DNA of 58,830 nucleotides from a virus (IMGVR_UViG_3300021344_000002:1-58830); one strand, 5' to 3'. Shown: positions 1 to 58,822, counted from the first letter of the stretch. Translations and numbers: made by a program. The notes: generated by a model from the letters alone, not told the origin.

Positions 1-126
1 TCGCTGAAGTTCCACGAGGAAGTCGAGGAGCGCAATAAGATTCTCGCTATGGCTATTGTGCTCATTGAAAGTTTAGATGATGGCAGGGACAGCCGTTAGA
101 AGCGGAGAGAGATTCTATGTTTTTCC
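1..126. repeat. Terminal direct repeat, left copy (circularity/assembly overlap)
   Basis: 1-126 is identical to 58697-58822. Confidence 0.95.
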
Positions 127-836
127 AAGAAGCAATCGTAGCCACACCGGCCTCGCACGCCAGGGAGGTGATCAAGGATAGGTTTGACCAGCAGCGCAAT
201 GGTCGTCGCTGCTGGTCAAACCGCGACACAAGAATACTATTTCACGTGTTTTTTCTTATGGATGGGCAAAAGGATCATCTGCGACTTTGCGAGATGCTCC
301 ATGTATCAGAAGATGATGTGCGGCATGCCATTGTTTTCTTAAAAGATGAGCGCCTCGTGACTATTGAGGTGCATGGTAAGGAAAAGGAGCAGGCAGTGGG
401 AGAACTCAATACCGCGTTGCTCAGTCAGAGTTTCGATGAGATGAAAGATGACGGCGAGGTGATTACCAAGAAGTTCTACGAGATCTTCTTTCGAAAAGGT
501 CGAGAAACCTTTTCCACCAATGAGATAGGGGATCTCTTTGCTGGTGTAGACGCGCAGCAGCAATATGTCGCTTTCTGGGGCGCTCTGGCATTCGTCATGG
601 CAGGGGTACTTGCCGGGAAAAATGTTGTCGGGGATCTGCAAAGTTTAGGAGCGCGTCATACCGGCTACCGCGTAAAGCCGGGCTACTATGGCATTGCTGG
701 CGCGGCGTTGATCGATACGTTTCAGTGGTATTACACTGACTATCGAGGTTTACCCTGGAGGCAAGAATTGCGGGATGCCTGGGTGGGGGCTTATACGCTT
801 GTCGCTGGCGTCATGGTAGGAGCTGCAGGAGAGTGA
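117..836 (+). CDS. N-terminal winged-HTH-like domain fused to a globin domain
   Basis: C-terminal ~140 aa has globin hallmarks: FY (B10), LF (CD1), QQ (E7), LGARH (proximal His F8), YRVKPGYY, AALIDT, AWVGAY. N-terminus LCEMLHVSEDDVRHAIVFLKDERLV is HTH-like. Confidence 0.8.
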   Translation: MFFQEAIVATPASHAREVIKDRFDQQRNGRRCWSNRDTRILFHVFFLMDGQKDHLRLCEMLHVSEDDVRHAIVFLKDERLVTIEVHGKEKEQAVGELNTALLSQSFDEMKDDGEVITKKFYEIFFRKGRETFSTNEIGDLFAGVDAQQQYVAFWGALAFVMAGVLAGKNVVGDLQSLGARHTGYRVKPGYYGIAGAALIDTFQWYYTDYRGLPWRQELRDAWVGAYTLVAGVMVGAAGE

Positions 837-1132
837 GCGTGAAGAAGGCAACATCCGACAAATTGGCAGAGGCACTGATTCACGCAAAGGCTCCGCAAAT
901 TATGATAGAGCGTGCTCGCAGCGGAATGTACGATGATTTCAAGTCTGACTTACCGTTGCCGCTGCATGCCCTGGTCGACGATGCCAAACAATACCACCTC
1001 AACAATATCGCACTCAGAGCCATGAACGGTGAATTTGATGCTGAGCAGTGGGAAGCAGATGCATGGGCGATCAGTGCAGAGGGACAAGAAGCATTTCAAC
1101 AGATTCTACATGAAGGCCACGAGAAATCATGA
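833..1132 (+). CDS. Hypothetical protein
   Basis: Overlapping start/stop (GTGA) with the upstream gene; operon-like packing. Confidence 0.7.
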   Translation: MSVKKATSDKLAEALIHAKAPQIMIERARSGMYDDFKSDLPLPLHALVDDAKQYHLNNIALRAMNGEFDAEQWEADAWAISAEGQEAFQQILHEGHEKS

Positions 1133-1341
1133 GCTATGAACACGTCACTGTCAAGGGTGTCACACTTCGCCAGCTAGACCGGCATGAAACATCTAGTGGC
1201 ATCAAGGCTGCTGTCTATGTCGTCATTGCCGACGGCAGTGGTCTCATTATCTATAATGGTGAATCAGTGACGTTTGACAGTCCGACCTCGGCTCTTGCTG
1301 AATGGCTGCGTTGGATCGAGGCCCAGATGCTCTTTAGTTGA
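1129..1341 (+). CDS. Hypothetical protein
   Basis: ATGA overlap with the previous gene. Confidence 0.65.
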   Translation: MSYEHVTVKGVTLRQLDRHETSSGIKAAVYVVIADGSGLIIYNGESVTFDSPTSALAEWLRWIEAQMLFS

Positions 1342-1357
1342 TTCTAGTTCTCAAAGA

Positions 1358-1372
1358 AAGGGGTACCAGCCA
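1358..1372 (+). promoter_or_regulatory. Start-associated motif AAGGGGTACCAGCCA (copy 1 of 7)
   Basis: Exact 15-mer, 3 nt before ATG at 1376. Confidence 0.8.
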
Positions 1373-1375
1373 ACT

Positions 1376-1867
1376 ATGAATAATCCTACAGTACTTGATG
1401 ATACCGTAAAGCGTGCAGTTGTACCGCTGGCAGCAAGCCGCGCCGTGAATGCTCCGATTGATGCGCCGCTACTGGAGTTTCCGCAGTTGTACATCATTGC
1501 ACCGGCACCAGAAGGGTACCTACCCACGGAACAAGAGATCAGCGAACTGCGACGCGAAGTAGAATCTCTTGATGATGACGAGTACATGCCGGCCACCGTG
1601 CCGCTCTCACAGAGCAGTGTCGCCATGTATCACTTAGAAACAGCATCGGCGTATGTGTTTGATGCGTGGGTCGCTGCCATCTGCTCAGGTGGCATTGTGT
1701 TTGATTTTGCGATGGTGGCGCGTCTGGTCTGCATTGACCGATCCCGCTGGTCGCTGAAAGAGAAATGGTGGATGATCAACGCCCTGGCATTAAGTGGCCT
1801 TAAACTCCCGTTGTATAGTCGCGCAGAGGCGCTGGTGGCATTGATTGACATGGAGGTGGCGCAATGA
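1376..1867 (+). CDS. Hypothetical protein (start revised to 1376)
   Basis: ATG after the SD-like motif; in frame with ORF 1274..1867. Confidence 0.65.
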   Translation: MNNPTVLDDTVKRAVVPLAASRAVNAPIDAPLLEFPQLYIIAPAPEGYLPTEQEISELRREVESLDDDEYMPATVPLSQSSVAMYHLETASAYVFDAWVAAICSGGIVFDFAMVARLVCIDRSRWSLKEKWWMINALALSGLKLPLYSRAEALVALIDMEVAQ

Positions 1868-2334
1868 GCAGTGAGTTTGAGGAGATCTGCAATAAGTTTC
1901 AAGAGTTCATTGGCTGGCCCTGGCAGTACTACATTCTCGATGAGCAGGGCCAACCGGTGCCGACCAATGACCTTTATGCTATCGGGCGGTTGCTTGGTAA
2001 TATCAAAGCGCGCAAAGTTGCTGAGACACATTTTGTGTTTCGCGGCTTGCCTGTTGGGATAAGCACCAGGAACACGGTGCTCAACCATGCGCATGGGCCA
2101 TGTGCAGAGCCGGTGCTATGGGAAACGATGGTCTTTACACGAAGCCCGCACCTCGACGGCCTCTGCCAGCGCTACACCAGCAAATGTGCGGCAATATATG
2201 GGCACAACTGGCTCGTTGCCCATTGCTATCGCTATCTACGCACACACCGCCCTATCAGCAATCGCCGCGCCCTTGTTGCGGAACGTCGTGCGCAGCGTGG
2301 TCAGAGTGTGGCAAGGAAGGGCGTGGCGCGATGA
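1864..2334 (+). CDS. Phage hypothetical protein
   Basis: SD GGAGG; P.LWETMVF...RY.S...A..GH pattern recalled from small phage proteins. Confidence 0.7.
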   Translation: MSSEFEEICNKFQEFIGWPWQYYILDEQGQPVPTNDLYAIGRLLGNIKARKVAETHFVFRGLPVGISTRNTVLNHAHGPCAEPVLWETMVFTRSPHLDGLCQRYTSKCAAIYGHNWLVAHCYRYLRTHRPISNRRALVAERRAQRGQSVARKGVAR

Positions 2335-2702
2335 TCGATACATTGATTGCCTGGGTCGTGGTGCTCTGCCGCATTAGCACGGTGCTTCCTATTGCTGTAT
2401 TGGTGTATGCAGTGCGGCAGCGTGTGCGACATGGCGTGAAAATAGCTACCTGGTTCCTCTTTTGGGCAGCATTGAACACTGTGCTCAACGTTCCGCTTCA
2501 ATGGTTCCAAGGCCCGGTGTGGCTCCACATGCTCATCTTTGCTTTCTGGACTGTATCGCTGATGATCTGTGTCTTCGTCGGTCTCAAAGAATTCGAGGAA
2601 TTGGCCGTGCAGGTCGCAGTCATCCGGATCTTGAAGCAGGTCGTCAGAGCTTCGAGTGCCAATATAGAGATAGTGGAGAAGGAGGAGAGCATCAGTGAGT
2701 AG
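2331..2702 (+). CDS. Membrane protein (3 predicted TM segments)
   Basis: Hydrophobic stretches; ATGA overlap. Confidence 0.6.
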   Translation: MIDTLIAWVVVLCRISTVLPIAVLVYAVRQRVRHGVKIATWFLFWAALNTVLNVPLQWFQGPVWLHMLIFAFWTVSLMICVFVGLKEFEELAVQVAVIRILKQVVRASSANIEIVEKEESISE

Positions 2703-3704
2703 TGCTAAATGCGACGACGTGACGACAAATAATATTGCTGAGATGTCCAATGAAGACATCAATATCCTTGTTGAGCAACATCTTTTTCGATCTAAGAAAT
2801 GGTGTGATGGTCGCCTCTGCGATTTTACCCATAATTTGCTCTTTTCCTGAAGCATATTGTGCCGATCCATCTGGCTTTTTTCCTGGCTTTATATTGCAGA
2901 GGTAAAGCCAGGAGTGAAGCCAGATATTGGCAGTGATTCTGATTTGTGAGCCATATCATGGCAGTAAATCATTTCATGGCCTTTTTGAGGTTTGCAGTGC
3001 TCCTGCCTCTGCTTTTTGCAGCCAATATATGCAGCACATGTCATCAGATGGCTCATAGATTTGAGCCTGTTTGATGCCAAGCGCAGTTCGCAGGCGCTTC
3101 CAAAGGGCGCTGTACACATCGACTCAAATTGCTTCGTGAGGGATATTGTGGCAGCAGATCTCTCTACCAAAGACGCGAACAGGCACATCAGGACGCGCCT
3201 ACTGATCTTGACAACAGTTTTATCTCATGCGCGGCAGAGACCAGGCCAGGACCGCTTTTGTACAACAGTCACGACGCAAATTGGTCTGTGAACCATAAAG
3301 TGCCGATACGCTTGTGAAGCATGAGTTGGCCCAAATTGCCAATATATGGATAAGTTTTCAGCCTCGAATATCACTATGCCTGCGCTAGTACCCACGCAGG
3401 ACATGGTACCGGTACGGCTTACTGGCAATGTGATGAGTGCGGAGCCATCATTCGCCATACGGTCACCAGGCATCATAGTCGCACGGTGCCTGACTACTCC
3501 TGTAACATGTCCCTGGCCTGGCGCATCGTCGAGCGACTCAGGACACTCGATGATCTCACTCAGATGCATTTTGAGCTGTGCATGATGCCGCAGTATCACT
3601 GTAGTGTCATCCGTATCGCTCCGCGTATGGTCGCAATAGCTGCTCTACAGGCTCTCAATATCATCGATCTGGCGGGCTATGTTGTCGTCGAGGGGACACA
3701 ATGA
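2695..3704 (+). pseudogene. Phage ABA-sandwich-like gene interrupted by a 543-bp insertion
   Basis: 5' part (..EDINILVEQHLF..WCDGRL) and 3' part (EYHY..CDECG..PDYSCNMSLAWRIVERL..APRMVAIAALQAL) join in frame when 2818-3365 is removed. Confidence 0.65.
2818..3360. mobile_element. Non-autonomous TG...CA element (MITE-like) with 5-bp target duplication GCCTC
   Basis: GCCTC at 2813-2817 and 3361-3365; ends TG/CA; imperfect TIR (14/21 ungapped); no convincing ORF. Confidence 0.65.
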
Positions 3705-3820
3705 AGACAGTGAAGCGCTATGCCGTCATAGCAGCCTTTGTAGTGGCGTTTCTGGCCTGGGTGGCCTTTGTGTTCGTTGTGCTCTGCGTCGTGTGGTGGT
3801 GGCTCAATCTGACGCCTTGA
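3701..3820 (+). CDS. Small single-TM peptide (39 aa)
   Basis: MKTVKRYAVIAAFVVAFLAWVAFVFVVLCVVWWWLNLTP; SD GAGGGG; ATGA overlap. Confidence 0.5.
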   Translation: MKTVKRYAVIAAFVVAFLAWVAFVFVVLCVVWWWLNLTP

Positions 3821-3883
3821 CGTGGACTCGCAATGCTCCATAATGAGCGCATTGAATTGTGGAACGTTGCTCAAATTTTCACA

Positions 3884-3920
3884 ACAGAGGCCGCTACGAT
3901 CAACTCGTAGCGGCCTCTGT
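3884..3920. terminator. Hairpin terminator between convergent operons
   Basis: 16-bp perfect stem ACAGAGGCCGCTACGA/TCGTAGCGGCCTCTGT. Confidence 0.7.
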
Positions 3921-3942
3921 GCATTCTGTGCATTCTGTGAAG

Positions 3943-4215
3943 CTACCGCATGCAGCACCCCTGGGCTTTCCACCCAGGGCAGTCGTCGCAACTGATCCTC
4001 GCTCTTCCTCTCAGTGCACCCCGCGATAACGGCGCACTCCATCGCGCTCCAGGCTCTCCATCGCATACATGGACGATCTCACCATATTCGGGTTTGAGCG
4101 CTGCCTCTTTGAAAGCGCTGGCCCATTCCTCGCCCTCATAGATGATCAGGTCGTCGGCGACCACCAGGTGAACAGGCTGTGATTGTTCGGTGTTACTCTG
4201 TTGCTGCTGGCTCAT
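3943..4215 (-). CDS. Hypothetical protein, Cys-rich C-terminus
   Basis: SD GGAGG before MSQQQQ. Confidence 0.5.
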   Translation of the reverse strand: MSQQQQSNTEQSQPVHLVVADDLIIYEGEEWASAFKEAALKPEYGEIVHVCDGEPGARWSAPLSRGALRGRARISCDDCPGWKAQGCCMR

Positions 4216-4513
4216 CAGTGCCCTCCTCCGTGGTGATATGGAGGGCGAGGGCGCTGGTGCCACGGCCCGGGTCGTAGATTTGCCTGAATGCGGCACCGTC
4301 AGGGAGCGTAACGCACCATCGCTCACTGGCAACTTTGGCGATTCGTTCCCTCGTGGTTCCCGCTGGCAGTGTAACGGTTGTGCGGAATCCTTCGCCTTCA
4401 ATACGAGCTTCAACGATACATCCATGATGTACCAGGAATACCTCGGCCTCTGGAATGATCGCTGCTGCAATGAAGATCTTCATCGGTGGTGGTTGTACTG
4501 GCTCTTCCATCAT
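4193..4513 (-). CDS. Hypothetical protein
   Basis: SD GAGGGG; protein-like composition. Confidence 0.55.
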   Translation of the reverse strand: MMEEPVQPPPMKIFIAAAIIPEAEVFLVHHGCIVEARIEGEGFRTTVTLPAGTTRERIAKVASERWCVTLPDGAAFRQIYDPGRGTSALALHITTEEGTDEPAATE

Positions 4514-4685
4514 GGCTTCCCCCTCGCACTTCCATCAGTGTGATAGTAATACTTCCCACGTGTGTTACTATTCCGGCAAATTTTGCAGTAAAAGCCTCGT
4601 TGATCGCCGGTTACTTGATTGTTGGGCTTTGACTCTCTGCCGCAGCATTCACAATAGTGCACAGTTGCACTTTCACGTTTCATCC

Positions 4686-4922
4686 TTACCTCACAATGCT
4701 CTCATAAATATTCACGGTCACCTCTTTTGCTTGCTGTTCACCGATGAGGTTACTAAGTTGACCGGTACAGTGGTCAATATGCTTATAGCGCCGCTCAATA
4801 CTGGCATGGCTTGCGACGGTTGCCGAGCCGTTCATTGCTCTTTCCAGTGCCTCACATTCAAGAGCAATGCTGACCCGGAGCGCTGCAACCTCGCTGACAT
4901 TGGTAATGGTCTCTGTAATCAT
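4686..4922 (-). CDS. Small helical protein (SEVAALR..IALE..H..I type, recalled from Ktedonobacteria)
   Basis: Preceded by start-associated motif variant AAGGGGTACCGGCCA (4926-4940). Confidence 0.65.
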   Translation of the reverse strand: MITETITNVSEVAALRVSIALECEALERAMNGSATVASHASIERRYKHIDHCTGQLSNLIGEQQAKEVTVNIYESIVR

Positions 4923-5218
4923 GATTGGCCGGTACCCCTTCAGTATCTGGGAAATAAACGATGATTTCTAAAGGTGCGCAGCCGAGGCAGACAAACGGCA
5001 TAGAGTCAGCACTGTGCTCGGCTGCGCGAGGTTCGGGACGGTGTACGTCGTGATGGAGGGTCGAAGCTCTATCAACATCTACACCCTTGTTGCAGTGTTT
5101 GCAAAACAACAAGATCTACTTGAAGTGTAGAGCGTAAAAGTGATATCATCAAGGAACAAAGTGTTCCTAAAAGAGGAACAGAGTGTTAATAAGCAACCAG
5201 TGAAATAAGAAGGTAGAT

Positions 5219-6385
5219 ATGGTAGAACTGGATAACAATGCATTCGGAAAACTGATAAAGTCTTTCCGAGAGCAACGAGGCTTGTCGCAAGGGAAGCTTG
5301 CAGAGAAATGGGGTCATACACGAGAATATGTGTCCCAGATAGAGCGAGGAAAGCGGAAACTGGATAAACAAGAGCAGATCAATCGCCTTGCCGATATCTT
5401 AGGAATCCCACCTGAGAGGCTAGATGCTATCGGTAAAGGGATGCCACAACGGCAAGCCTTTGCTGAGCACCCTTCTGATGCTGATGATATTCTTCTCCAG
5501 ACCTTATTAGAGCCGTCGCTCGCAACTGTTAAACTGTCCTGGCTGCTCTGGCTGGCTGATGGGAAAAACGTTGCTATTGTCGAGAATCTAGCAGACTTAA
5601 CTGCCAGGCTGGAGGACGCGCTTACAAGACATCATGGTCAGTTCATGAGACCTGCACAAAAAGTCCTTGCATATGCTCATGAGATGCTAGGAAAGATCGC
5701 TTTTGACCAACTTCGCTATACCGACGCAATGGGGCATTTTCAGGAGATGCTCGATTTAGGTGAAGAGGTACGAGATCCGAATATCATCTCGTTGGCACAC
5801 ATTCATCGGGCTGATATCTTGCGGAAGCGAGGACGCTACGAGACAGCTATCAAGGTGCTTGATGCCATCCGGCCCATTGTCGATACTGCGAGCGAACACG
5901 TTCAGGGGATCCGTTGGCAGATTCTTGCAAGGGCACACTCCGTCTATGGGCGGGAGGATCTATTTTTAAAAGCAATAGACAATGCTGAAGCTATCGCCAC
6001 CGACACCAAAGAAACGATAGACACACAATACAATCAGTTCAATCTGGTAGAAGTGCTTCAAGAGCGAGCACAGGGCTATACTATGCTCTGGCAACCAGAG
6101 AAAGCCCTGGAGATCTATCCTCAGACAGACAAACTCAAGCCATTTCGCCCCATGCGTGAAATGGGTTCGTACATGATCATTAAGGCGCAGGCTCATACTT
6201 ACAGCGGGGATCTCGCAAAAGGAATAGCATTGGCTGTCCAGGGTGTTGAATTGGCGCAAGGCTACGGTTCTCAGCGACATATTAGCCGGGTGCAGGCAAT
6301 GCACGATAGACTCAGGGTGACGAAACTGGGAAGAAATGGTCACATGAAGGATCTCAAAGACGCGTTGATGAGTGTACAGAAGTGA
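5219..6385 (+). CDS. XRE-family HTH regulator with TPR-like C-terminal helical region
   Basis: FGKLIKSFREQRGLSQGKLAEKWGHTREYVSQIERGKR; repeated helical A/L/G patterns. Confidence 0.85.
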   Translation: MVELDNNAFGKLIKSFREQRGLSQGKLAEKWGHTREYVSQIERGKRKLDKQEQINRLADILGIPPERLDAIGKGMPQRQAFAEHPSDADDILLQTLLEPSLATVKLSWLLWLADGKNVAIVENLADLTARLEDALTRHHGQFMRPAQKVLAYAHEMLGKIAFDQLRYTDAMGHFQEMLDLGEEVRDPNIISLAHIHRADILRKRGRYETAIKVLDAIRPIVDTASEHVQGIRWQILARAHSVYGREDLFLKAIDNAEAIATDTKETIDTQYNQFNLVEVLQERAQGYTMLWQPEKALEIYPQTDKLKPFRPMREMGSYMIIKAQAHTYSGDLAKGIALAVQGVELAQGYGSQRHISRVQAMHDRLRVTKLGRNGHMKDLKDALMSVQK

Positions 6386-6903
6386 AACGAGTTGTCTATG
6401 TCATAAGCTGCGGCACACCAAATGCACAGCAACTCTATGAGCTTGTACCTCTGCTCCAATCCGCCAAATGGGATGTATGCGTCATCCTAACACCCTATGC
6501 CACCAGGTTTGTAGACCAGGAGCGCCTTGTGCAATTGACAGGCCATCCGGTACGTAGCGAGTATAAGCGTCCGGAAGATCCTGATGTACTCCCTCCCGCT
6601 GATGCCCTGCTGGTCTATCCCGCCACTTTTAACACAATCAATAAATGGGCGATGGGCATCAGTGATACACTTGCACTTGGCTTGCTTTGTGAATTCACCG
6701 GGTTGCAGTTGCCTATCCTCGCTATTCCCGTGGTGCGCGGGGGTAAACTGGCTGCACATCCAGCATTCCCGCGAAGTCTGCGTCTGCTGAGACGATATGG
6801 TGTGCATGTGCTCTATGATACTGAGAAATATCCTCCCAGGAATGAGCTGCCTAGCGAGGTCATCCTTGAAGAATTGCAAAGGATGATGGACATCCTTCAC
6901 TAA
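6382..6903 (+). CDS. HFCD-superfamily flavoprotein (CoaC/EpiD-like fold)
   Basis: VILTPYATRF, PATFNTINKWAMGISDT, HPAF motifs. Confidence 0.85.
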   Translation: MKRVVYVISCGTPNAQQLYELVPLLQSAKWDVCVILTPYATRFVDQERLVQLTGHPVRSEYKRPEDPDVLPPADALLVYPATFNTINKWAMGISDTLALGLLCEFTGLQLPILAIPVVRGGKLAAHPAFPRSLRLLRRYGVHVLYDTEKYPPRNELPSEVILEELQRMMDILH

Positions 6904-6942
6904 GCTGTAAGATCTCTACTCACTATGACGAGTGGGCAACGC

Positions 6943-7212
6943 CACAATAAAAAAGACCTTGATCTCTCCATATCCACATGGTATGATCTCAGTGAGATGG
7001 AGATATCACGGGAACGACATGGGCAAACTCTAGGATTCCGAACAGGCGCTGCTACTGATCGCACTAGCAGCGCCTGTTTGCGTGTGTTGGCCGACGATAT
7101 GTTATACTGATCATGACCTTTCTACGATGCATGCTGTGTGTTTTTCTGTACGAGCCTTGCCGCGCACAGCATGCCCTCAACGTCTCTGCACAATAAAAAA
7201 GACCTTGATCTC
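6943..7212 (+). repeat. 24-bp direct repeat CACAATAAAAAAGACCTTGATCTC, 2 copies
   Basis: 6943-6966 and 7189-7212. Confidence 0.9.
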
Positions 7213-7476
7213 CCTAATAACTCTGACCTCACTGGATTGCGCTGTACCTGCAGGGTGTGTTATACTTTTGTGGTAGGATCGCAAGGTCTACCTGAAGACA
7301 TAAGAGCAGCAGCCCCTGGATACATTGGTGATGATATGCACCCGGAATGTCCAGGGGTTGTTGTTTGTGCTATGATGATCGTGACTTGCCTGTGGTTGTG
7401 TACAATAATTGCGTGAGTTTTCATACTGCAAGTCGCTATAGCCCTGCAGGACCCCCTGGACAGGGCTACGTTTTTG
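6959..7476 (+). ncRNA. Cluster of 3-4 putative promoter-to-hairpin small RNA units
   Basis: TTGATC-17-TATGAT (6959-6987) then hairpin 7041-7078; TGnTATACT 7100-7108 then hairpin 7129-7174; TTGCGC-18-TATACT (7237-7266) then hairpins 7272-7292 and 7306-7364; TATGAT/TACAAT then hairpin 7439-7468. Confidence 0.45.
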
Positions 7477-7480
7477 CTCA

Positions 7481-7963
7481 TCAATGCCAGTACAGCGTGC
7501 GGCCCTCACCTCCATCGTCTGGACACGCTCCCCCATTGCCAACATTGACGCCTCCTAGATGGCTGTAGAGGCCGTCATTGCATTGCACGACAAAGCCCCT
7601 GGTGTCATCCCAGAAACCAGCGACGCACTTGAAGTACTGCTCATTGCAGAAGCTAGGATCTGGGTCATAGATCAGATTGCCGGTGTTGTCGAAGTCATAG
7701 CCCCAGGGATTCCCGTTGGTCCCCTTAATCGGTGTGGCAGTGCTCTCGTAGAACCTGGCCTGTGTTGAGGAACCAGCACCAGTAGCGGTATTGCTGTAGG
7801 TAGGGTTCGTCGTTGTGGCGATGTCTACAGTGCTGCTCTCCGGGTTCTTGGTGTTGAACATTGGTAAGATCAAGGCTAACACGACAACGCCAATGATAAT
7901 GCTGATGACAATGAGGCCATCGCGCCTCTTTTGCTGCGGTGTCTTCTGTGGTGGTTGATACAT
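7481..7963 (-). CDS. Membrane-anchored exported Cys-rich protein (GNPWGYDF motif)
   Basis: N-terminal TM, S/T-rich linker, CNDG..S..GG..GAC..GG tail. Confidence 0.7.
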   Translation of the reverse strand: MYQPPQKTPQQKRRDGLIVISIIIGVVVLALILPMFNTKNPESSTVDIATTTNPTYSNTATGAGSSTQARFYESTATPIKGTNGNPWGYDFDNTGNLIYDPDPSFCNEQYFKCVAGFWDDTRGFVVQCNDGLYSHLGGVNVGNGGACPDDGGEGRTLYWH

Positions 7964-8130
7964 CGATGAATCCTCTCTGATAATGATAATCATTCTTTGT
8001 GTAGTACAATGCTAGAGATATAATCCAATCAAGAAGTATAGAAGAGATGAGGGAGAATTGGAAGAAGGAACAAGAGTTCATCGAAAGCAGAACTATGCTA
8101 GAATGATACAAACTATTTGAAAGGACTTCT

Positions 8131-8487
8131 ATGTCATCTCATGATTTAAAGCAGCGTTGTTATGACGCATTGAACAAACTTACTAAATGGAGAGCGGTAT
8201 TTGCCGGGTGGCAGCTCGGAACGCGATCAGACAGCGATCCTGAATGTAAGGCTGTGAAAGATCACCGGGAAGTGACAATCTTACTGCGAGTGGAGAATAC
8301 CGCGCTGCTCAGGTTGCTTGTTGAGAAGGGAATCTTCACAACTGAGGAATTTCAGCAAGCCACCATTGACGAGGCTGAACTACTCAACAAAGACTATGAG
8401 GCGCGTTTTCCTGGCATCAAAGCAACAGATATTGGCATGCAGTACGATAAGCGTGCAGGGGAAACGATGCGGCACTGGAAACCATAA
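8131..8487 (+). CDS. Hypothetical protein
   Basis: SD AAAGGA; upstream TGnTAGAAT. Confidence 0.7.
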   Translation: MSSHDLKQRCYDALNKLTKWRAVFAGWQLGTRSDSDPECKAVKDHREVTILLRVENTALLRLLVEKGIFTTEEFQQATIDEAELLNKDYEARFPGIKATDIGMQYDKRAGETMRHWKP

Positions 8488-8517
8488 GTCTTCGCTCGGT
8501 GTTCCCTCGATATCTAC

Positions 8518-8784
8518 GTGCTCTATGCATTCGGGGGAGTCGCCGTCGCCATAGCGATCCTGGCAATGATAATTGGATATTGCAGAGGCTATAGGAATCA
8601 CTCAGGGGTCTTTTCGTGCTTAGAAACGTCGCTGTTCATCGTGGTTGTTATGCCTTGCATTATAGCATGTGTGGCGATGTTTTGTGGCGATATGCTGGAT
8701 GCTGCGAGCTGCTTTGTGGCGGTGATCATTGTGGGTATGCTGTGGTTTGGGGTAACGATGGTGTACTTGGTGTTTGTGGTGTAA
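8518..8784 (+). CDS. Small multi-TM protein
   Basis: Three hydrophobic segments; weak RBS. Confidence 0.4.
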   Translation: MLYAFGGVAVAIAILAMIIGYCRGYRNHSGVFSCLETSLFIVVVMPCIIACVAMFCGDMLDAASCFVAVIIVGMLWFGVTMVYLVFVV

Positions 8785-8812
8785 ACAATGTTATTGCAAT
8801 GTTAACAATGTG

Positions 8813-9043
8813 TTACCCAGGGCGTTCTGGCTTCGTCCACTCAGGATGTCCGATGGCATCCATATAGTGTTTATGGATGGTCTGCAGCACGTGGTAGGCT
8901 CGTTGCCCACCAAGCTCTTCTCGTGGCGACGGAGATGCTTGGAGTTGACGCATGACCCAGGTCATCGCGAACTCGACCTCCATTGCATCGAAGTACTTCG
9001 GGACGGGGATAGTGAGGATTATCGTCGTGTCTGTGTCGCTCAT
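8813..9043 (-). CDS. Hypothetical protein
   Basis: SD GAGGAG; coupled operon. Confidence 0.6.
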   Translation of the reverse strand: MSDTDTTIILTIPVPKYFDAMEVEFAMTWVMRQLQASPSPREELGGQRAYHVLQTIHKHYMDAIGHPEWTKPERPG

Positions 9044-9330
9044 CGCAGCTCCTCTTTGTGTACGTCGCCAACATAGATCAGCGGTCCTAGCGTGAAAATC
9101 ACCGCTTTCCCTAAGTACGGTACCACCCTGACCTCACAGTCGTTCCTGACGTAGCCTGTAGTGCCTAGCGTGGTGTTCTCTCTGATGAACGCTGGCTTTG
9201 GCTCAACTACGACATAGCCAATGGATTTAACAGGAATATTTCGTTGCTGTAATTCGGCCATGATGCCCGGCCAATGTGGCAAATCAGCGGGCCAGATCGT
9301 TGCTGCCATTGCTTCTCTCAACTCACTCAC
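9040..9330 (-). CDS. Hypothetical protein
   Basis: Coupled operon downstream of the recombinase. Confidence 0.6.
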   Translation of the reverse strand: MSELREAMAATIWPADLPHWPGIMAELQQRNIPVKSIGYVVVEPKPAFIRENTTLGTTGYVRNDCEVRVVPYLGKAVIFTLGPLIYVGDVHKEELR

Positions 9331-9589
9331 AAAAGATGGCCTTGTCTGTCAAGCATTCAGGGCATATTCGAGATCCTCGCGGCTTGTTCATGACATAGGT
9401 AAATGTCCTTACATCCTTAAATTCACGGCACAGTCCACATTTCCATTGATTTCGCTCATACTCTATCTTGTCCATCAACGTTTGGTAATCTACCTCGGCG
9501 AGGAGAGCCAGGATGACTTTTACGTCATCTTCATTTTGGCATCTGTCTGCAATGGACCATGCAATATCGCCTATTTCTATTTCTCTCAT
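9323..9589 (-). CDS. Small zinc-finger protein (CxxC...CxxC)
   Basis: CGLC and CPEC. Confidence 0.6.
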   Translation of the reverse strand: MREIEIGDIAWSIADRCQNEDDVKVILALLAEVDYQTLMDKIEYERNQWKCGLCREFKDVRTFTYVMNKPRGSRICPECLTDKAIFCE

Positions 9590-9619
9590 CGTATCTTGTC
9601 CCTTGAGTATTAACCGAAA

Positions 9620-10531
9620 TTACAGATCTAAGGCAAAGCTGCTGGATTCAGATGGCATTACATGTTGGTAACGCATCATCACCATTGGGCTCTTCCACCC
9701 CATCGTTTCTTGAATGACTCGCTGTGAAGCTTTGCCCATTGTATGAGTTGCGTGGGCATGTCGAAAGAAGTGAGGCGAGGCTTTTATTCCAGCTACGCGG
9801 GCGATGCGAGAAACGATCTGCCAAACGCGGGCTTCAGTCATGCGATAGGATGATACGCCGTTGTGATAAGAGAGCTGTCTGGTTGCAAAGATGTACGCCT
9901 CTGGATTGTCTTGGTCGGGCTTGATGGTCTGCAATGCTTTCCAGGCTTTCTGGTGCAAGAGCACAGCGCGGGTTTCACGTTCTTTCCCGAAGACGGTAAT
10001 TTGTCCTGTGTCTCCTTGCTCACGTGCGTCTTTCCATTGGAGGTTGCATAATTCCTCACAACGAATGCCGCTGGCATAGAGTAGTAGGATTAAGACATAG
10101 TTACGCTGGCTACCACTCTTCTTTGCTTCATAGATGATGTGTTGAATCTGGGCAGGCGTAAGAATGCGCTCTGCCAACGTGTCTTTTGCCTTCGGCGGTG
10201 TGAGGCCAGATCCCACATTGAAAGGGATATAGCCTTGCTTCTGAGCAAAAGTTAGCAACGATTTGATGACATAGAGCATACGTCGTTGCGTGTCCACACT
10301 GCTATATGCGCAACGTATCCACTCATCATAATCTTGTAAGTCTGGGAGCGTGACCTCACCTATAGACTTACCGACCTGCTGATAGAAAACGGTGATATCC
10401 TGAACATAAGCTTTTTTTGTGTGAGGGCTGTTCTTGGATCGAAGCCAAGAACGAACCGCCGTCATGTCGGACCCCGGCGTATTGACTGGGAGAAGGGTCA
10501 GAGAGGGCGACGGAATGATGTCATTGCGCAT
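9620..10531 (-). CDS. XerD/ResD-like tyrosine recombinase (resolvase type)
   Basis: SPHTKKAY SAM domain; SGIR, FGK, HFFRH, GW, RY catalytic residues; 303 aa, no arm-binding domain. Confidence 0.9.
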   Translation of the reverse strand: MRNDIIPSPSLTLLPVNTPGSDMTAVRSWLRSKNSPHTKKAYVQDITVFYQQVGKSIGEVTLPDLQDYDEWIRCAYSSVDTQRRMLYVIKSLLTFAQKQGYIPFNVGSGLTPPKAKDTLAERILTPAQIQHIIYEAKKSGSQRNYVLILLLYASGIRCEELCNLQWKDAREQGDTGQITVFGKERETRAVLLHQKAWKALQTIKPDQDNPEAYIFATRQLSYHNGVSSYRMTEARVWQIVSRIARVAGIKASPHFFRHAHATHTMGKASQRVIQETMGWKSPMVMMRYQHVMPSESSSFALDL

Positions 10532-12129: not shown

Positions 12130-12315
12130 TTCTTCGAGACCCAGATTAAACACTGTCCAAATTGCCTCTATCACTGCCTCATTGTTAGCCAGGACCACCG
12201 CTCTTGTATAACTAGCTAACAGATGTTATCATAACTGTAGGTTATCAACGTTATTTCATTGATAACGATGCTCCCCACCAGGGTAGCGCGCATTCGAGTA
12301 CATCAGGACGAGTCA

Positions 12316-12885
12316 ATGAGCGATGAGCAGAATTCCGGCATTCCGACACGTACAACGCGCATAAGTGGGCCTCTGACACCTGAGCAGCGGGAACGGAAAC
12401 AGGCGCGTTTTCTCAAGGAGTATCGGGAATCGGGGAATATCAAGTATTCCTGTAAGGTCGCTGGTATTCATCGCTCAACATTCTATGAGTGGCGTGATCA
12501 TGACGAAGTATTCAAAGCTCAGTTGCCAGATGCTGCGGAGGATGCCCGCGACACGTTAGAGTTTGCAGCGTATGATCGAGCAGTCAAAGGCGTTGAATCC
12601 TTCGTAGTGAGTATGGGGCGCATGGTGTATGAAGAGATCCCGATGCTGGATGATGAGGGGAAACCGAAGCTCGACAAGCATGATGAGCCAATGATGAAAC
12701 ACGGCAAGCCGCTTGTTGAGCGCAAATACAGCGATTCACTGCTTATCACGCTGCTCAAAGCCAATATGCCGAAGAAGTATAAAGACAAAGTGGAACTGAC
12801 AGGGAAAGATGACGGCCCTATAGAAGTTGAGTATGTAACCGAATGGGGCGGCGGCTCCCTGGATGAGGAAGAAGGCGAGGCATAA
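12316..12885 (+). CDS. terS: Terminase small subunit
   Basis: HTH (SCKVAGIHRSTFYEWR), KYSDSLLITLLKA..P.KY, ELTGKDDGPIE; directly upstream of terL. Confidence 0.85.
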   Translation: MSDEQNSGIPTRTTRISGPLTPEQRERKQARFLKEYRESGNIKYSCKVAGIHRSTFYEWRDHDEVFKAQLPDAAEDARDTLEFAAYDRAVKGVESFVVSMGRMVYEEIPMLDDEGKPKLDKHDEPMMKHGKPLVERKYSDSLLITLLKANMPKKYKDKVELTGKDDGPIEVEYVTEWGGGSLDEEEGEA

Positions 12886-12890
12886 GTGCC

Positions 12891-14222
12891 TTGCCAGACA
12901 GTGCACCTTCAAAACCGAAAATAACGCTCTATAGTCCGCATCGAGGACAGCGGCGCATCCATAAGAGCAAGATCCGCTTTCGCGTGGTGGCGTGCGGCAG
13001 ACGGTTCGGCAAGACCTTGATGGCCTGTAATGAGATCGTCAAGTTTGCCCTCGATCACAAGCATGCCAATTGCGCATGGGTGGCTCCCTGGTTTAAGCAA
13101 GGCAAGATTGCCTACCGCTTCATTCGTCGGGCGTTTGCCAAGTCTGGCAAGAAGATCATTGTTCGCAAGTCTGACAGCGATCTGCGCCTTGAGTTCGCGA
13201 ATGGCTCGGTCATTCAGTTCTTCAGCGCGGAGAACTACGACTCAATACGCGGCGAAGGCTATCATTTCTTGGTGATCGATGAGGCTGGGGATGCACTCAG
13301 AGATCCGGCAATCTGGACCGATGCAATCCGGGCCGCGCTCTCAGATACCAATGGCTATGCACTGATCATTGGGACCCCAAAGGGTCGCAATCTCTTCTTT
13401 CAACTCTTTGCTCGCGGCGATGACCCGGAATATCCCGATTGGGCTAGCTTCCATGCCAGGACATCGGACAACCCGTATATTCCGAAGGCAGAGATCGAAG
13501 CGGCAAAGAAGGAGCTGCCAGATGACGCGTTTGATCAGGAATATGATGCACGATTCCTGGAAGAGGGCGCGGGCGTTTTTAAGGGGATCGATGCCTGTAT
13601 CAAGGGGAAACTTGATCCGAACTACGAGCGGGTAGCAGGCCATGCGTATGTTCTAGGCTTTGATCCAGCGAAGTACCAGGACTACAGTGTCGTGACGGTG
13701 ATCGACTGCCATACCAGGCAGGTGGTGTACTGGCAACGTATTAATCAGATCGACTATACCGTACAGCTTGAAATGGTTGCATCGGTCGCCGATAAGTTTC
13801 ACGCATTTGTCTTGATTGACATGACCGGCGTGGGCGATCCGCTCCTGGAGCAACTGAAGAAACTGAAGCGCGGGCGACATTTTTCGGTAGAGGGGTATCT
13901 CTTTACCAATGCCAGTAAAAAGGCATTGGTAGAACAATTGCAACTTGGTATTCAGCATCGTGACATCGGGTTTCCAGATATTCCGGTGATGCTCAATGAG
14001 TTACGGCAATTTGAATATCAGTTGACGCCAAGCAGAATGTTGACCTACTCAGCACCAAAGGGTGCACATGATGATGCGGTCATCTCACTGGCTTTAGCGT
14101 ATTTCGCGGCATCAACACCAAGACAAGGCGGCGGTGGTGTCCTGCTCGCAGTCGAAGAGAACAAAGAGGCGATACCTCTCACGAGCTGGGAGGAGTTAGC
14201 TGGACAGATAGACTACTACTAA
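12891..14222 (+). CDS. terL: Terminase large subunit
   Basis: Walker A GRRFGKT, Walker B LVIDEA, GTPKG, RNase H-like GFDPA..D..HDD. Confidence 0.95.
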   Translation: MPDSAPSKPKITLYSPHRGQRRIHKSKIRFRVVACGRRFGKTLMACNEIVKFALDHKHANCAWVAPWFKQGKIAYRFIRRAFAKSGKKIIVRKSDSDLRLEFANGSVIQFFSAENYDSIRGEGYHFLVIDEAGDALRDPAIWTDAIRAALSDTNGYALIIGTPKGRNLFFQLFARGDDPEYPDWASFHARTSDNPYIPKAEIEAAKKELPDDAFDQEYDARFLEEGAGVFKGIDACIKGKLDPNYERVAGHAYVLGFDPAKYQDYSVVTVIDCHTRQVVYWQRINQIDYTVQLEMVASVADKFHAFVLIDMTGVGDPLLEQLKKLKRGRHFSVEGYLFTNASKKALVEQLQLGIQHRDIGFPDIPVMLNELRQFEYQLTPSRMLTYSAPKGAHDDAVISLALAYFAASTPRQGGGGVLLAVEENKEAIPLTSWEELAGQIDYY

Positions 14223-26007: not shown

Positions 26008-26379
26008 ATGGCTGACAGTGTATCGGTCGAATGGGAAGGTCTTGCCGAATGGGAGGCTAAGATAGCAAGCTTGCGGCAACGTGTGCCTGAACAGGCCAAA
26101 GAGATCATGGCAGGCATCGGGGCAGATGCAAAAGATGTGATGCGCGAGAGCACGCCGGTGTGGCGGGGGAAGGTTGATAGGTGGCATCAACCCGGCAAAC
26201 TGAAGGAAGGCGATACGCTCACGCAGACCGAGGATGGCTTTGAGTTATCAAATGCAGTGAAATACGCGCCATTTGTCGAGAAGGGTACACGCAAGATGGC
26301 GGCGGAACCGTTCTTGAAGCCAGCCGCTGACTTTGCAAAACAGGAGATGCAAAGTCGTCTCCCGAAAGCACTTGAGTAA
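26008..26379 (+). CDS. HK97 gp10-family neck protein
   Basis: TPV..G.L, YAPFVEKGTRKMAAEPFLKPA. Confidence 0.85.
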   Translation: MADSVSVEWEGLAEWEAKIASLRQRVPEQAKEIMAGIGADAKDVMRESTPVWRGKVDRWHQPGKLKEGDTLTQTEDGFELSNAVKYAPFVEKGTRKMAAEPFLKPAADFAKQEMQSRLPKALE

Positions 26380-26394
26380 GAGGAGTATGCAGCT

Positions 26395-26784
26395 ATGCCC
26401 ACATATCCAACACCGGGAATTGGCGGCCAGGTGAAGAAAGCCAGTACTGTCATCGGCAACATTACGCAATGGGACGGTGGGCCTCAAGCGGAGCTTGCCA
26501 ACACGACATCATTTGGCGCATCAGGGAGCTACGAGACCCATGTGACCTGCATCCTGAAATGGAGCTTTAAATTCAATGGATCGACCGATATCAGTGATGC
26601 ATCGCAGGCGGCGATGCACAATGGCATCGGAGCTACAGATACCTATAACTTTTGGATTGATGCCACTCATTATTGGAGTGGCACAGCTATCTTGAACAAG
26701 ATTATGGACAAAGCCAATGCGCAAAAAGGCGTCGTTGGCTCTGAGTATGACCTGACAGGCACTGGCCCGCTGGTCTGGAACTAG
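26395..26784 (+). CDS. Tail tube protein
   Basis: TTSFG, WS...G, YWSGTA, LTGTGPL. Confidence 0.75.
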   Translation: MPTYPTPGIGGQVKKASTVIGNITQWDGGPQAELANTTSFGASGSYETHVTCILKWSFKFNGSTDISDASQAAMHNGIGATDTYNFWIDATHYWSGTAILNKIMDKANAQKGVVGSEYDLTGTGPLVWN

Positions 26785-26797
26785 TGAGGTGTAGGCG

Positions 26798-27439: not shown

Positions 27440-27448
27440 AGGGAATGC

Positions 27449-28086: not shown

Positions 28087-28091
28087 AGAGC

Positions 28092-45827: not shown

Positions 45828-45906
45828 GGCTGGTACCCCTTCTTGATAGTCATTGATGAACAGCGACCAACCCCGGATCGTGTGGAGCTGGCCGCGTGGG
45901 ACGATG

Positions 45907-47880: not shown

Positions 47881-47895
47881 AGAAAGGAACAATGT

Positions 47896-54278: not shown

Positions 54279-55928
54279 ATGGAAGAACGTTTAGAAGGAT
54301 CTCAACAGATACAGCAGCGCGGGGAATCATCCCCCGCTGTCTCGACTCCCCCGATGACCCTTAAGGAGAAGGCGAAATATGCCGCCATTACTGGTGTTCC
54401 TAGCCTGCTCATCTTGGAATTGTTGAATGCGCGAGGGCCCGGTTTTGCTATTGCCGGTTTCATTGGCTATGGGGCGTGGCATTTCTCTGACCGGATTCGT
54501 GATATGCGTCCAGAGCGAGCAGGCCACAAACAGAAAACGCCGCAATCCTTCTCAAAGCGTGCACAGTCGGCAATCTATTGGCTGGGAACCGGTCACGCGA
54601 TGCCAGAGCAGGGCGAACAGAACGAGGAAGAGGGAACCGTCGAAACGACGCTGGGCGATATGGCAGCCCCTGCGACTGAAGAAGATGCGCTGTTCATCGT
54701 CAAGCGTGCCGATGATACCGGCGGCATTGCACGGCTCACCATCGATCAAATTGTGAGTCACTGTGAACCCAACAGTTACAAAATATTCATTGGCCGCTCG
54801 CTGACTAATGAAACTGAAGGTCATCCGGCGGTGCAGATCAGCATTTACAAACAGCATTTTCGTTTCATGGGTGCCTCGCAGCGAGGAAAGTCTTCGATGG
54901 TTGCGGCATTCCTCGATATTGTGACCCGGACCCACGATCCGAAACATGTGCGCCTGGTCATCCTCGACAAAGAGGACCAGACCGGGAATCTCTTCGCGCA
55001 CCTGCCCCATGTCGCCACGGCCAGAGGTGAGGATGGCAAACCTTTTAAGTTACACGCCCGAACTAATGAGCAGGTGCTTGAATACTTGATCTACACCGCA
55101 GCGATTATGGAGTATCGCTACACCCAACTGAGTAAGAAGCAGCTTCTTGAGCAGCCGATTGTCCTGGTCTATCTTGAAGAGTTTTTAGACCTCAAAAACT
55201 ACTTTAAGCATCGTATTGATAAGGCAAAAGGTGAGAAGGAAAAAGAGCAAGCCAAACGCGACTACGCCACCTTTGTGTATTGCATTGAGGTTTTGTCACA
55301 GCGCGGTCTCAAAGCCCGTGTGCAGCTCCTGCTGTGTGCACAGGTTGAATACGCCGACGATGACTTCAAAGAGGCTCTGGTGAACATCCAATGTGGCTTC
55401 TCGTTCTGTGTGAGACCAACAGCGGCTGCGGCAGCAGGATTTAGAAATACCGCGCTGGTTAAGCGTAATGCACAGGAAAATAAAATCGGTCAGGCGGTCG
55501 TGGAAACTCCTGATTGTAACGATCTGGTCCTGGCTCCTGACTACGATCTGGAGCAGCGCATCATTGCATTTGAAAAAGCGCATCCAGAGATTCACCCAGA
55601 TTCTCAGATGGCAGAAGGTGACGATGCTAAGCACGAAAATGGGGGAATGACAGGGGTGAACGTGAATCCGGTGAATGACGTGGAAGCGCACCAGAAGCCG
55701 GTGAACGCAACGGTGAATCCCGGTGAACGTTCCACTGAGACAAAAGAGATTCCACCGGCATTCACCCAGTCCCAGGAGGTGCAGGTCTTGCTGGCGTACC
55801 ACGAATTATCGTCTTCTGGCGAGAAGTTGACCAGGACGGCACTCAGGGATTATCTCAAGTGGAACAGCAAACAATATCAATTCATTCTCAAACCGATCTG
55901 CGATAAGCATAGCATTCTTATGGATTAG
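54279..55928 (+). CDS. FtsK/SpoIIIE-family DNA translocase (TraB-like): N-terminal TM, ATPase, C-terminal wHTH
   Basis: Walker A GASQRGKS, ILDK, Walker B VYLEE, GLKARVQLLLCAQ; C-terminal LTRTALRDYLKW. Confidence 0.8.
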   Translation: MEERLEGSQQIQQRGESSPAVSTPPMTLKEKAKYAAITGVPSLLILELLNARGPGFAIAGFIGYGAWHFSDRIRDMRPERAGHKQKTPQSFSKRAQSAIYWLGTGHAMPEQGEQNEEEGTVETTLGDMAAPATEEDALFIVKRADDTGGIARLTIDQIVSHCEPNSYKIFIGRSLTNETEGHPAVQISIYKQHFRFMGASQRGKSSMVAAFLDIVTRTHDPKHVRLVILDKEDQTGNLFAHLPHVATARGEDGKPFKLHARTNEQVLEYLIYTAAIMEYRYTQLSKKQLLEQPIVLVYLEEFLDLKNYFKHRIDKAKGEKEKEQAKRDYATFVYCIEVLSQRGLKARVQLLLCAQVEYADDDFKEALVNIQCGFSFCVRPTAAAAAGFRNTALVKRNAQENKIGQAVVETPDCNDLVLAPDYDLEQRIIAFEKAHPEIHPDSQMAEGDDAKHENGGMTGVNVNPVNDVEAHQKPVNATVNPGERSTETKEIPPAFTQSQEVQVLLAYHELSSSGEKLTRTALRDYLKWNSKQYQFILKPICDKHSILMD

Positions 55929-57853: not shown

Positions 57854-58102
57854 ATGGACAAAGAAACCATTGAGCGCATCATCAGGAGTTGCGGCTACAG
57901 ACCTCAATCTCAATACAAAAAGCTGTATAGCCATCGTGCAGTGGTGGGTACGACCCACCACTTTATCTACATTGTGCGCGGGACTACTGCGCGTAGTCTC
58001 GGCCAGATCGAGACGATATCAGCGATGAGTGAGGAGCAGTTGCGTGATCACATTGCGCACGCAGCGTCAACGTTTGCGCAACTACCTGCGCAGAAGAAAT
58101 GA
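57854..58102 (+). CDS. Hypothetical protein
   Basis: SD GAGGAG. Confidence 0.55.
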   Translation: MDKETIERIIRSCGYRPQSQYKKLYSHRAVVGTTHHFIYIVRGTTARSLGQIETISAMSEEQLRDHIAHAASTFAQLPAQKK

Positions 58103-58110
58103 GGAGTGAC

Positions 58111-58554
58111 ATGGCGGACAACATCTTTTTCAAATCAGCAGACCACAAACGACGCTTTATTACAATGATGGGCCAGATAGGGAAGATCTATGACGGGAAT
58201 CTTGATCCTGAGTACTCGGCGGCTTTGTATATCTTGACCGCCGACACGGGAACATGGAAGAAAGTAAGCGGCTACGTTGATCGTGATGGCATCGAAATCG
58301 ATACTATCCTTGAGGAGGTGGATCTCAGTAGCGGACACGCTGTTCTTGTCAGGTTGGCGGGTAATCTCTTCAATAACCAGCAGCATCTTGATCCACTGGA
58401 GTTCCTGCGATTAGATGAGGACAATTTTCAGGTAGCGCTGGCTGCACTCAAATTGAGGCGCTATAGCATGCAGATGGGCAACTTCAGTAAATCTTATGTT
58501 GATGAGAAAGCAGCACGAGAGCAATTTGAAGCGGAGAATCGGGAACATGACTAA
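58111..58554 (+). CDS. DUF6075-like protein
   Basis: FKSADHKRRF, EY.AALYIL, LSSG..LVRLAGNLFN, LD..NF..AL.ALKLR. Confidence 0.6.
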   Translation: MADNIFFKSADHKRRFITMMGQIGKIYDGNLDPEYSAALYILTADTGTWKKVSGYVDRDGIEIDTILEEVDLSSGHAVLVRLAGNLFNNQQHLDPLEFLRLDEDNFQVALAALKLRRYSMQMGNFSKSYVDEKAAREQFEAENREHD

Positions 58555-58795
58555 CCCGGACAATCTCAACATCATCGCCCTGGCCGCGGAGGCTCAACGG
58601 CTCGGCTATGACACACCTGGCAAAGTCATCGCCGGTCTGGAGTACAACATTCGGCGTAATATTGACTATCTCAACAAGCCGAATCGCCGTGGGAAATCGC
58701 TGAAGTTCCACGAGGAAGTCGAGGAGCGCAATAAGATTCTCGCTATGGCTATTGTGCTCATTGAAAGTTTAGATGATGGCAGGGACAGCCGTTAG
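58547..58795 (+). CDS. Hypothetical protein; 3' end lies in the terminal repeat and precedes the globin gene on the circle
   Basis: Stop lies in the repeat; operon continues to 117. Confidence 0.6.
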   Translation: MTNPDNLNIIALAAEAQRLGYDTPGKVIAGLEYNIRRNIDYLNKPNRRGKSLKFHEEVEERNKILAMAIVLIESLDDGRDSR

Positions 58796-58822
58796 AAGCG
58801 GAGAGAGATTCTATGTTTTTCC
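58697..58822. repeat. Terminal direct repeat, right copy
   Basis: Identical to 1-126; the last 8 nt (TATAAGCG) diverge. Confidence 0.95.

Follow-up and report, generated by a model that had tools for sequence, protein, structure and literature searches.

A phage gene joining a winged-helix-like domain to an M-family globin: a possible haem-based one-component regulator

PAS, cNMP-type, H-NOX and sensor-globin modules all occur in known haem gas sensors, and the outputs of globin-coupled sensors include kinase, cyclase, chemotaxis and STAS domains. Among haem one-component transcription factors, CooA, RcoM and DNR/HcpR use non-globin sensor folds. FG214 is described in a preprint as a one-component protein with an N-terminal helix-turn-helix (HTH) and a haem-PAS domain, in which the redox or ligand state releases the HTH and enhances DNA binding (PMC13060918). 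Globin folds without haem have also been joined to HTH domains: the MabR/PucR family combines a non-haem globin-fold sensor with an HTH, MabR having a GGDEF-like domain between them (PMC11617747), and in photoglobin-MerR/HTH_17 fusions a non-haem globin-fold sensor is likewise joined to an HTH (PMC8717448). Here we analyse P0001, a protein of 239 amino acids (aa) in which a winged-helix-like N-terminal domain precedes a globin. It is encoded at 117..836 (+ strand, stop codon included) of the IMG/VR virus record IMGVR_UViG_3300021344_000002:1-58830, whose full 58,830 nucleotides (nt) are called the window; the gene was delimited from the open reading frame (ORF) list, its translation and full-length homologues. 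We tentatively read P0001 as a haem-based one-component gas/redox sensor-regulator acting on DNA, and put this at somewhat less than an even chance.

Residues 97-239 (405..833, +) make up the C-terminal domain, a complete 3-on-3 globin of the M (flavohaemoglobin-like) lineage, as delimited by Pfam, profile and structural matches. An alignment of 16 proteins of the same architecture (A2) was used for the profile, for the AlphaFold2 (AF2) model and for residue counts. Against the Protein Data Bank (PDB), the A2 profile matched Hell's Gate globin I (HGbI, 3s1i) at 1.8e-30, HGbRL (3wfw) at 1.5e-27, Vitreoscilla haemoglobin (Hb; 1vhb) at 8.4e-20, flavohaemoglobins at 1e-17 to 5e-17 and Campylobacter Cgb (2wy4) at 3.6e-16. 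The AF2 model of P0001 built with the 16 sequences has a predicted local distance difference test score (pLDDT) of 88.0 and a predicted template modelling score (pTM) of 0.61, against a pLDDT of 68.6 with only 3 aligned sequences. When the model was compared with 48,161 chains, 72 were found at Z>=8. The best solved structure for residues 91-239 was neuroglobin (2vry_A; Z 18.4, root-mean-square deviation 1.9 Å over 133 residues), and PA3967 (1tu9) gave Z 17.7, thermoglobin 16.7 and flavohaemoglobins 15.4-16.1. M-family and related 3/3 globins thus score 15-18, compared with 12.3-13.3 for globin domains of the globin-coupled sensor (GCS) lineage and about 10 for truncated 2/2 globins. The check by AlphaFold and structural search that had been proposed for this protein therefore recovered a globin fold.

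The original prediction had also described an intact haem pocket, and the residues it named are conserved: Y121 (B10), F141 (CD1), Q149 (E7) and H181 (F8), with Y191 at G5, the helix-position names B10, CD1, E7 and F8 following those of reference globins. Across A2 (n=16), Tyr is found at B10 in 15 proteins, Phe at CD1 in all 16, Gln at E7 in 14 (Leu in 2), His at F8 in all 16 and Tyr at G5 in 15, and in the profile alignment Y121, F141, Q149 and H181 pair with identical letters of HGbI and Vitreoscilla Hb. The Pfam globin model PF00042 reaches at least 22 bits in 13 of the 14 family members scanned, a count that leaves out P0025 and P0057; the remaining member, P0011, scores 19.6. PHROGs gave no match for P0001. 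From its pocket residues, P0001 would be expected to bind haem. It is not an Hmp-type flavohaemoglobin: the chain ends at residue 239 without an FAD/NAD(P)H reductase module, and NF009805 (Hmp-type) scores 33 bits against a cut-off of 432, aligning over model positions 17-136 only, the globin part. Nor is it a globin-coupled sensor (S family), as its globin is C-terminal and M-family globins are far better sequence matches.

The N-terminal domain, residues 1-96 (117..404, +), is delimited by the AF2 model, by weak profile matches and by structural neighbours in the ESM Atlas. The model gives it a strand (residues 4-11), helices at 15-27, 36-47, 54-61 and 65-77, and a wing strand (81-88), with a pLDDT of 84-96 over residues 31-80; the predicted layout is likely that of a winged helix in which the N-terminal strand completes the wing sheet. 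The linker to the globin (residues ~89-98; 381..410, +) is marked by a pLDDT below 50 at residues 89-94 and by the pTM already given. A profile of the 16 aligned N-terminal domains (A3) gave 15 PDB matches at E<=10, all of HTH type and aligned over the HTH-wing register, among them MarR, GntR/FadR, ArsR/CzrA, TFE and the winged helix-turn-helix (wHTH) of RbkR; these are individually non-significant, save for one designed repeat protein that was scored by repeated weak stretches. Sub-threshold matches to curated models are to CggR_N (Pfam; E 0.006-0.018, best 16.7 bits against a cut-off of 30), HTH_47 (Pfam; E 0.07, 13.1 against 27.1), GntR (Pfam; E 0.07, 13.2 against 27) and the Csa3 wHTH (NCBIfam; E 0.0045, 16.4 against 60.2). 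In the ESM Atlas, the top structural neighbour of residues 1-96 is a 227-aa globin-family cluster, which is the same fusion, and clusters of HxlR (template modelling scores 0.68/0.74), MarR (0.55/0.58) and TrmB/HTH_5 (0.70) proteins serve as leads only. Basic residues are kept in the 16-sequence alignment at R27, R39, R69 and in the wing; R69, the fifth position of the third helix, is Arg, Lys or Gln in 14 members, and the domain carries a net positive charge in 10 of the 16, up to +11.

Several families of evidence place P0001 in a wider group. Two full-length homologues share 49% and 46% identity with it over 97-99% of its length. A profile search of 1.84 billion representatives returned 4471 matches at E<=1e-3; among the best 150 representatives, 13 single-stretch matches carry both domains and 2 further ones are fragments, and clustering at 50% identity leaves 13 other fusion clusters within these best 150, plus one 64-member Atlas cluster. 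A local hidden Markov model of the N-terminal domain recognised 24 full-length two-domain proteins and 2 fragments among 162 proteins compared. One candidate member, P0152, was rejected and left out of A2, being the N-terminus of an IS4/5 transposase (DUF4096) joined to a globin. The N-terminal profile was also run against 5.8 billion proteins, with the 8000 candidates sharing most words being scored: all 8 matches among longer proteins are globin fusions, and among shorter proteins there is one 69-aa partial protein, labelled as coming from a Chloroflexi metagenome-assembled genome. A quick maximum likelihood tree built from 91 globin domains has a branch that sets the wHTH-linked globins apart from the rest, implying one change (SH-aLRT, the Shimodaira-Hasegawa-like approximate likelihood ratio test, 90), although the sample is biased towards the fusion family because its rows come from the match list ranked by the full-length profile. 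P0002 and P0006 are nearest to P0001 on this tree (56% identity). Judged from these sequences, the wHTH-globin fusion appears old and obligate; it defines a small family, so far undescribed, that extends beyond the phage. The earlier view of an HTH plus a globin as a non-standard architecture holds to the extent that no description of it was found in the literature searched, yet the arrangement recurs in the 24 full-length proteins of this family.

The 64-member cluster, the sole large Atlas cluster resembling the whole of P0001, is 93% bacterial, with Chloroflexota as its most frequent phylum (phylum known for 15 members), and those fusion relatives that are named or labelled with a taxon come from Chloroflexota bacteria only. 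The phage gene was probably captured from a bacterial host lineage, most likely Chloroflexota. Family members carry no annotation beyond "hemoglobin-like flavoprotein" or "globin family protein", and because of these bare labels the fusion is easily overlooked. A genome-contig scan gave 5 loci at which the globin part alone was matched, and 10 plasmid records likewise match the globin part alone (coverage <=70%, identity 27-30%).

Among 34 matches scanned, the nearest globins without a wHTH belong to six CheW-globin proteins, one MCP-signal-globin protein, two globin-PAS-HAMP proteins (one of which also bears an MCP domain) and one TPR-globin protein. By their domain content, this M-type globin branch appears to have served repeatedly as an input module, with the partner often N-terminal, and it is these sister globins in signalling proteins that lead us to favour a sensor role for P0001. 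The CheW-globin fusions (P0102, P0130, P0135, P0136, P0106 and P0094; 295-475 aa) run from an N-terminal CheW to a C-terminal M-type globin, an architecture of which no description turned up in the literature searched. The profile search of representatives also brought up giant many-globin tandem proteins from metagenomes: P0004 (2461 aa, 14 matched stretches), P0005 (2352 aa, 10) and P0009 (1842 aa, 12).

The sensor reading thus gains indirect support from the fusion of the nearest globins to signalling domains and from the occurrence of the N-terminal domain only with the globin. Under it, the M-family globin would hold haem b on His181, and the distal pocket (Tyr121, Gln149, Phe141) would bind O2, NO or CO, or the redox state would change. 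The change in the globin would be transmitted through the linker (residues ~89-98) or the domain interface to the winged-helix domain, whose DNA binding would be altered and, with it, transcription; for the phage, the gene would be an accessory regulator located in the early or non-structural block. By analogy with FG214, a similar logic could operate through the 10-residue linker of P0001. The ligand, the direction of regulation and the role in the phage life cycle are matters that we infer. That such a sensor sets early expression or the lysis-lysogeny choice by the O2 or NO state of the infected cell is a further step, which we regard as doubtful, and the analysis found no evidence for the effect on lytic timing suggested in the original prediction. 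A homodimer prediction (two chains, two haems) returned a score of 0.00 and a mark of 0.42 and weighs neither way.

With the same pocket, the apo and holo forms might instead differ in DNA binding, such that haem or iron supply is read and not gas. Haem-responsive HTH regulators exist, and the present data do not separate cofactor from signal; the pocket nevertheless matches globins that bind haem stably and tightly, the O2-stabilising distal Tyr and Gln are present in 14-15 of 16 members, and sensing haem alone would not call for them, which makes this version very unlikely. A globin of this lineage might also be an enzyme, such as an NO dioxygenase, an O2 scavenger or buffer, or a peroxidase-like globin protecting phage replication, with the N-terminal domain used for oligomerisation, localisation or recruitment of a reductase. 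Its closest solved relatives, from HGbI to Cgb, are O2/NO-handling M-family globins, and Tyr B10, Gln E7 and Tyr G5 form a pocket of flavohaemoglobin type; the N-terminal domain of P0001 is not basic, and a gene for an FMN-type flavoprotein (6382-6903) lies 5.5 kb downstream. We consider an enzyme unlikely, since no reductase domain is fused to the globin (the NF009805 score given above), the N-terminal domain has invariant positions of its own and was seen only together with the globin, the sister globins belong to signalling fusions, and the flavoprotein, in a separate gene pair, is of the PF02441 type, which is no known globin reductase.

A number of observations weigh against a haem sensor acting on DNA. 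M-family globins are best known for O2 and NO handling and not for sensing. The globin of P0001 is only marginally recognised by PF00042 (E 1e-4, 23.2 bits against a cut-off of 22) and was not detected in a six-frame Pfam search of the record. As to the N-terminal domain, its description as HTH-like in the original prediction is borne out by the winged-helix-like AF2 topology and left without backing from curated HTH families (Pfam, NCBIfam), none of which reaches threshold on any member scanned; for this reason we say only that the domain may bind DNA, as the modelled fold and the conserved basic positions suggest. In 11 further family members scanned, the N-terminal domain had no match at E<=0.01, and its alignment by hhalign with the phage's own ArsR-type protein had a probability of 16.6%. 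The PDB structural search with the whole model returned a list filled by globins and did not probe the N-terminal domain. The domain in P0001 itself has a net charge of -2 (isoelectric point 6.3), and its putative recognition helix, the third, begins Glu-Asp-Asp. Promoter and terminator scans gave nothing above shuffle level; inverted repeats occur in several intergenic regions, none attributable to P0001 as an operator; and neither the IMG/VR scans (with alignments A1, A5 and A6) nor those of metagenome contigs (with A1 and A5) gave any homologue locus, and hence no genomic context.

Some of these points would suit a haem sensor whose winged helix binds a protein, for example RNA polymerase, a sigma or anti-sigma factor or a host regulator. 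Winged helices often make protein contacts, as is generally known, the N-terminal domain and the start of helix 3 are acidic in P0001, the operator search assigned none, and the sister globins use protein-protein modules, CheW among them, for their signalling. We nevertheless hold a protein target to be distinctly unlikely, given that most of the N-terminal domains (10 of 16) are basic, that R27, R39, R69 and the basic wing residues are conserved, and that the weak profile matches are all to DNA-binding regulators.

If P0001 is indeed a haem sensor acting on DNA, no gas-sensing transcription factor would have been known from a virus before it, and in no organism would a haem globin have been shown earlier to serve as a one-component DNA-binding regulator. 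Made from the most-studied haem fold, with the flavohaemoglobin lineage placed behind a winged helix, it would link gas directly to DNA in a single switch. Phages would then themselves read the respiratory or nitrosative state of their hosts, which would bear on lysis-lysogeny in soils with steep oxygen gradients. At 239 aa, the protein would also be compact enough for a biosensor scaffold.

Within viruses, P0001 appears from sequence searches to be a rare protein type. Among 50,697 GenBank phage records, tblastn gave no match to P0001 at E<=0.01, and the architecture check in IMG/VR, made by three pattern-based scans and limited by their patterns, found no other viral member. Globin matches in BFVD are to the giant viruses Klosneuvirus (1.3e-4) and Fadolivirus (5.6e-3) only, and to no phage protein. 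Six IMG/VR contigs encode relatives of the large terminase (TerL) of this phage at 65-71% identity; the only complete one, G001 (63,230 nt), lacks the fusion gene, which the same search recovers in the window at 4.3e-94, and it also lacks the neighbouring DUF6075 gene. This makes the fusion gene an accessory element of a mosaic early region. Full-text searches of the open literature yielded neither a haem globin-HTH fusion nor a phage haem globin. A globin is thus unusual phage cargo, as had been proposed.

The fusion gene lies in a run of closely spaced genes. It starts with ATG, and on reading the sequence a Shine-Dalgarno-like GGAGAGAG is found at 104..111 (+), its GGAG (104-107) being separated from the start codon by 9 nt. 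The preceding gene of the same run (58496..58795, +; 99 aa) was taken from the ORF list; its final 99 nt recur at window 1-99, and its stop at 97-99 is 17 nt 5' of the fusion-gene ATG. Its product has no Pfam, PHROG or informative PDB sequence match. Downstream, another 99-aa gene (833..1132, +) has a GTG start at 833 overlapping the fusion-gene TGA (834-836), and a 70-aa gene (1129..1341, +) follows with an ATGA overlap, the ATG at 1129 overlapping the stop of 833..1132; ORFs 833-1132, 1129-1341 and 1864-2334 have no Pfam, PHROG or PDB match. By these start-stop overlaps, the translational coupling of the fusion gene to its neighbours is real, and the coupled operon of the original prediction stands. 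A hairpin at 2869-2925 (23-nt arms, 87% complementary, 11-nt loop), about 170 nt past the last overlapping gene of this run, is a possible transcript end. No RNA run is listed for window 1-2400, which bears neither way on expression.

The locus also bears on whether P0001 is a mere passenger, picked up recently from a host, drifting and without a role in the phage. The absence of the gene from G001, the mosaic nature of the region, where DUF6075 is missing too, and a Pfam globin score that is the second lowest of the 14 members scanned would all fit a passenger. The frame is intact, though, the residues of the pocket and of the N-terminal core are all kept, the guanine-cytosine content of the gene (51.1%) is that of the phage genome (51.4%), its ribosome-binding site is good, and start-stop overlaps tie it to its neighbours, so that we find drift without function extremely unlikely.

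The record is classed as linear in IMG/VR, with a CheckV completeness estimate of 60%. Its first 126 nt (1..126) are identical to 58697-58822, and the last 8 nt of the record, beyond the right copy (58697..58822), differ from the left copy. The record circularises despite its label and is a closed genome whose unit measures about 58,696 bp; from the 126-nt identity of the ends it follows that the fusion gene sits inside a closed phage genome. That 1-9600 might be bacterial flank, an idea prompted by the tyrosine integrase at 9620-10531 (-), is ruled out by the same overlap. The genome is that of a temperate, siphovirus-like phage, in agreement with the phage setting first proposed: apart from the integrase, its hallmarks are a small terminase (12259-12885), TerL (12891-14222), a 966-aa portal (14632-17532, +), a neck protein, tail assembly chaperone and tape measure protein (within 26008-29480) and an amidase endolysin (40899-41720). 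Ahead of the upstream 99-aa gene are the DUF6075 gene (58099..58554) and an FtsK/SpoIIIE-like gene (54279..55928). The soil origin assumed earlier agrees with the single run that contains the whole stretch, on which the soil label rests and which may be the source sample. As to the host, no tRNA was found in the phage genome, and the best cultured match of TerL is a Tunturiibacter phage (38% identity), followed by Thermus phages (30-35%), which is uninformative.

Some further features of the phage genome were recorded. The portal has an additional 2H-phosphoesterase (LigT/2'-5' RNA ligase-like) domain at residues ~530-699; a domain that cleaves nucleotides, placed on a protein of the capsid, could, to speculate, be an ejected counter-defence enzyme. 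A 388-aa regulator with an XRE-type HTH and TPRs is encoded at 5219-6385 (+), 3 kb from the integrase, and its gene has a start-stop overlap with that of the PF02441 flavoprotein (6382-6903, +); HTH-TPR proteins of about this length are known as receptors of peptide-based phage communication systems. Inside the ORF 51571-52863, at 51989-52098, a motif with a near-perfect palindrome in it (TTTGGTAAATGCATTTACCAAA) occurs four times in a 22-nt phase, and these repeats look like replication-origin iterons within an initiator gene. A perfect 48-nt tandem duplication with a partial third copy is found at 47769-47881, with a fourth, 17-nt copy at 48225-48241; the repeats sit where a minus-strand block meets the plus-strand block beginning at 48301, and are candidate operator repeats of a lysogeny switch. 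The 19-nt motif CATTGGCTGGTACCCCTTC occurs five times (window 4923, 45024, 45824, 46782 and 46990), and because on the opposite strand it gives a Shine-Dalgarno-like GAAGGGG and then an ATG, the copies probably mark where minus-strand genes start. A papain-family C1 cysteine peptidase (38004-38741, +) is encoded amid tail and lysis genes, and a PAPS-reductase-like protein (45042-45914, -) in the minus-strand block.

Compared with described proteins, P0001 shares the lineage, fold and FY / LF / Q / RH pocket letters of the M-family globins HGbI, HGbRL, Vitreoscilla Hb and Cgb. These are free-standing or have a C-terminal partner (Roadblock/LC7 in HGbRL), whereas the partner of P0001 is N-terminal; P0001 also has a 6-residue insert between helices B and C, and its family has no conserved acidic residue at the proximal Glu position of flavohaemoglobins. 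Globin-coupled sensors (HemAT, DosC, AfGcHK, GsGCS, BpeGReg) resemble it in uniting a globin and a signalling output in one chain and in having Tyr B10. Their domain order is the reverse, as P0001 has its putative output N-terminal and its globin C-terminal, and their globin is of a different lineage, none of them being among the 60 listed of 91 PDB sequence matches at E<=1e-5. No description of a direct DNA-binding output for a haem globin was found in the literature searched. CooA, RcoM and DNR/HcpR share the proposed logic from haem state to HTH, but sense through PAS or cNMP-binding domains and have no sequence relation to P0001. FG214 has both the N-terminal HTH and the haem-controlled logic proposed here, with a PAS sensor fold and no sequence relation (PMC13060918). 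MabR (PMC11617747) and the photoglobins (PMC8717448) are without haem, have the globin N-terminal and the HTH C-terminal, and belong to other globin lineages, whereas the proximal His and distal pocket are intact in P0001. Its nearest relatives without a wHTH are the CheW-globin, MCP-signal-globin and globin-PAS-HAMP-MCP proteins (the six CheW-globin proteins listed above with P0132, P0119 and P0142), several of which have the partner N-terminal as in P0001; they differ in having a chemotaxis output and in lying on the other side of the tree branch. To the known kinds, haem one-component sensors and chimeric globins, the combination found in P0001, if it works as we propose, would add a small and previously undescribed family.

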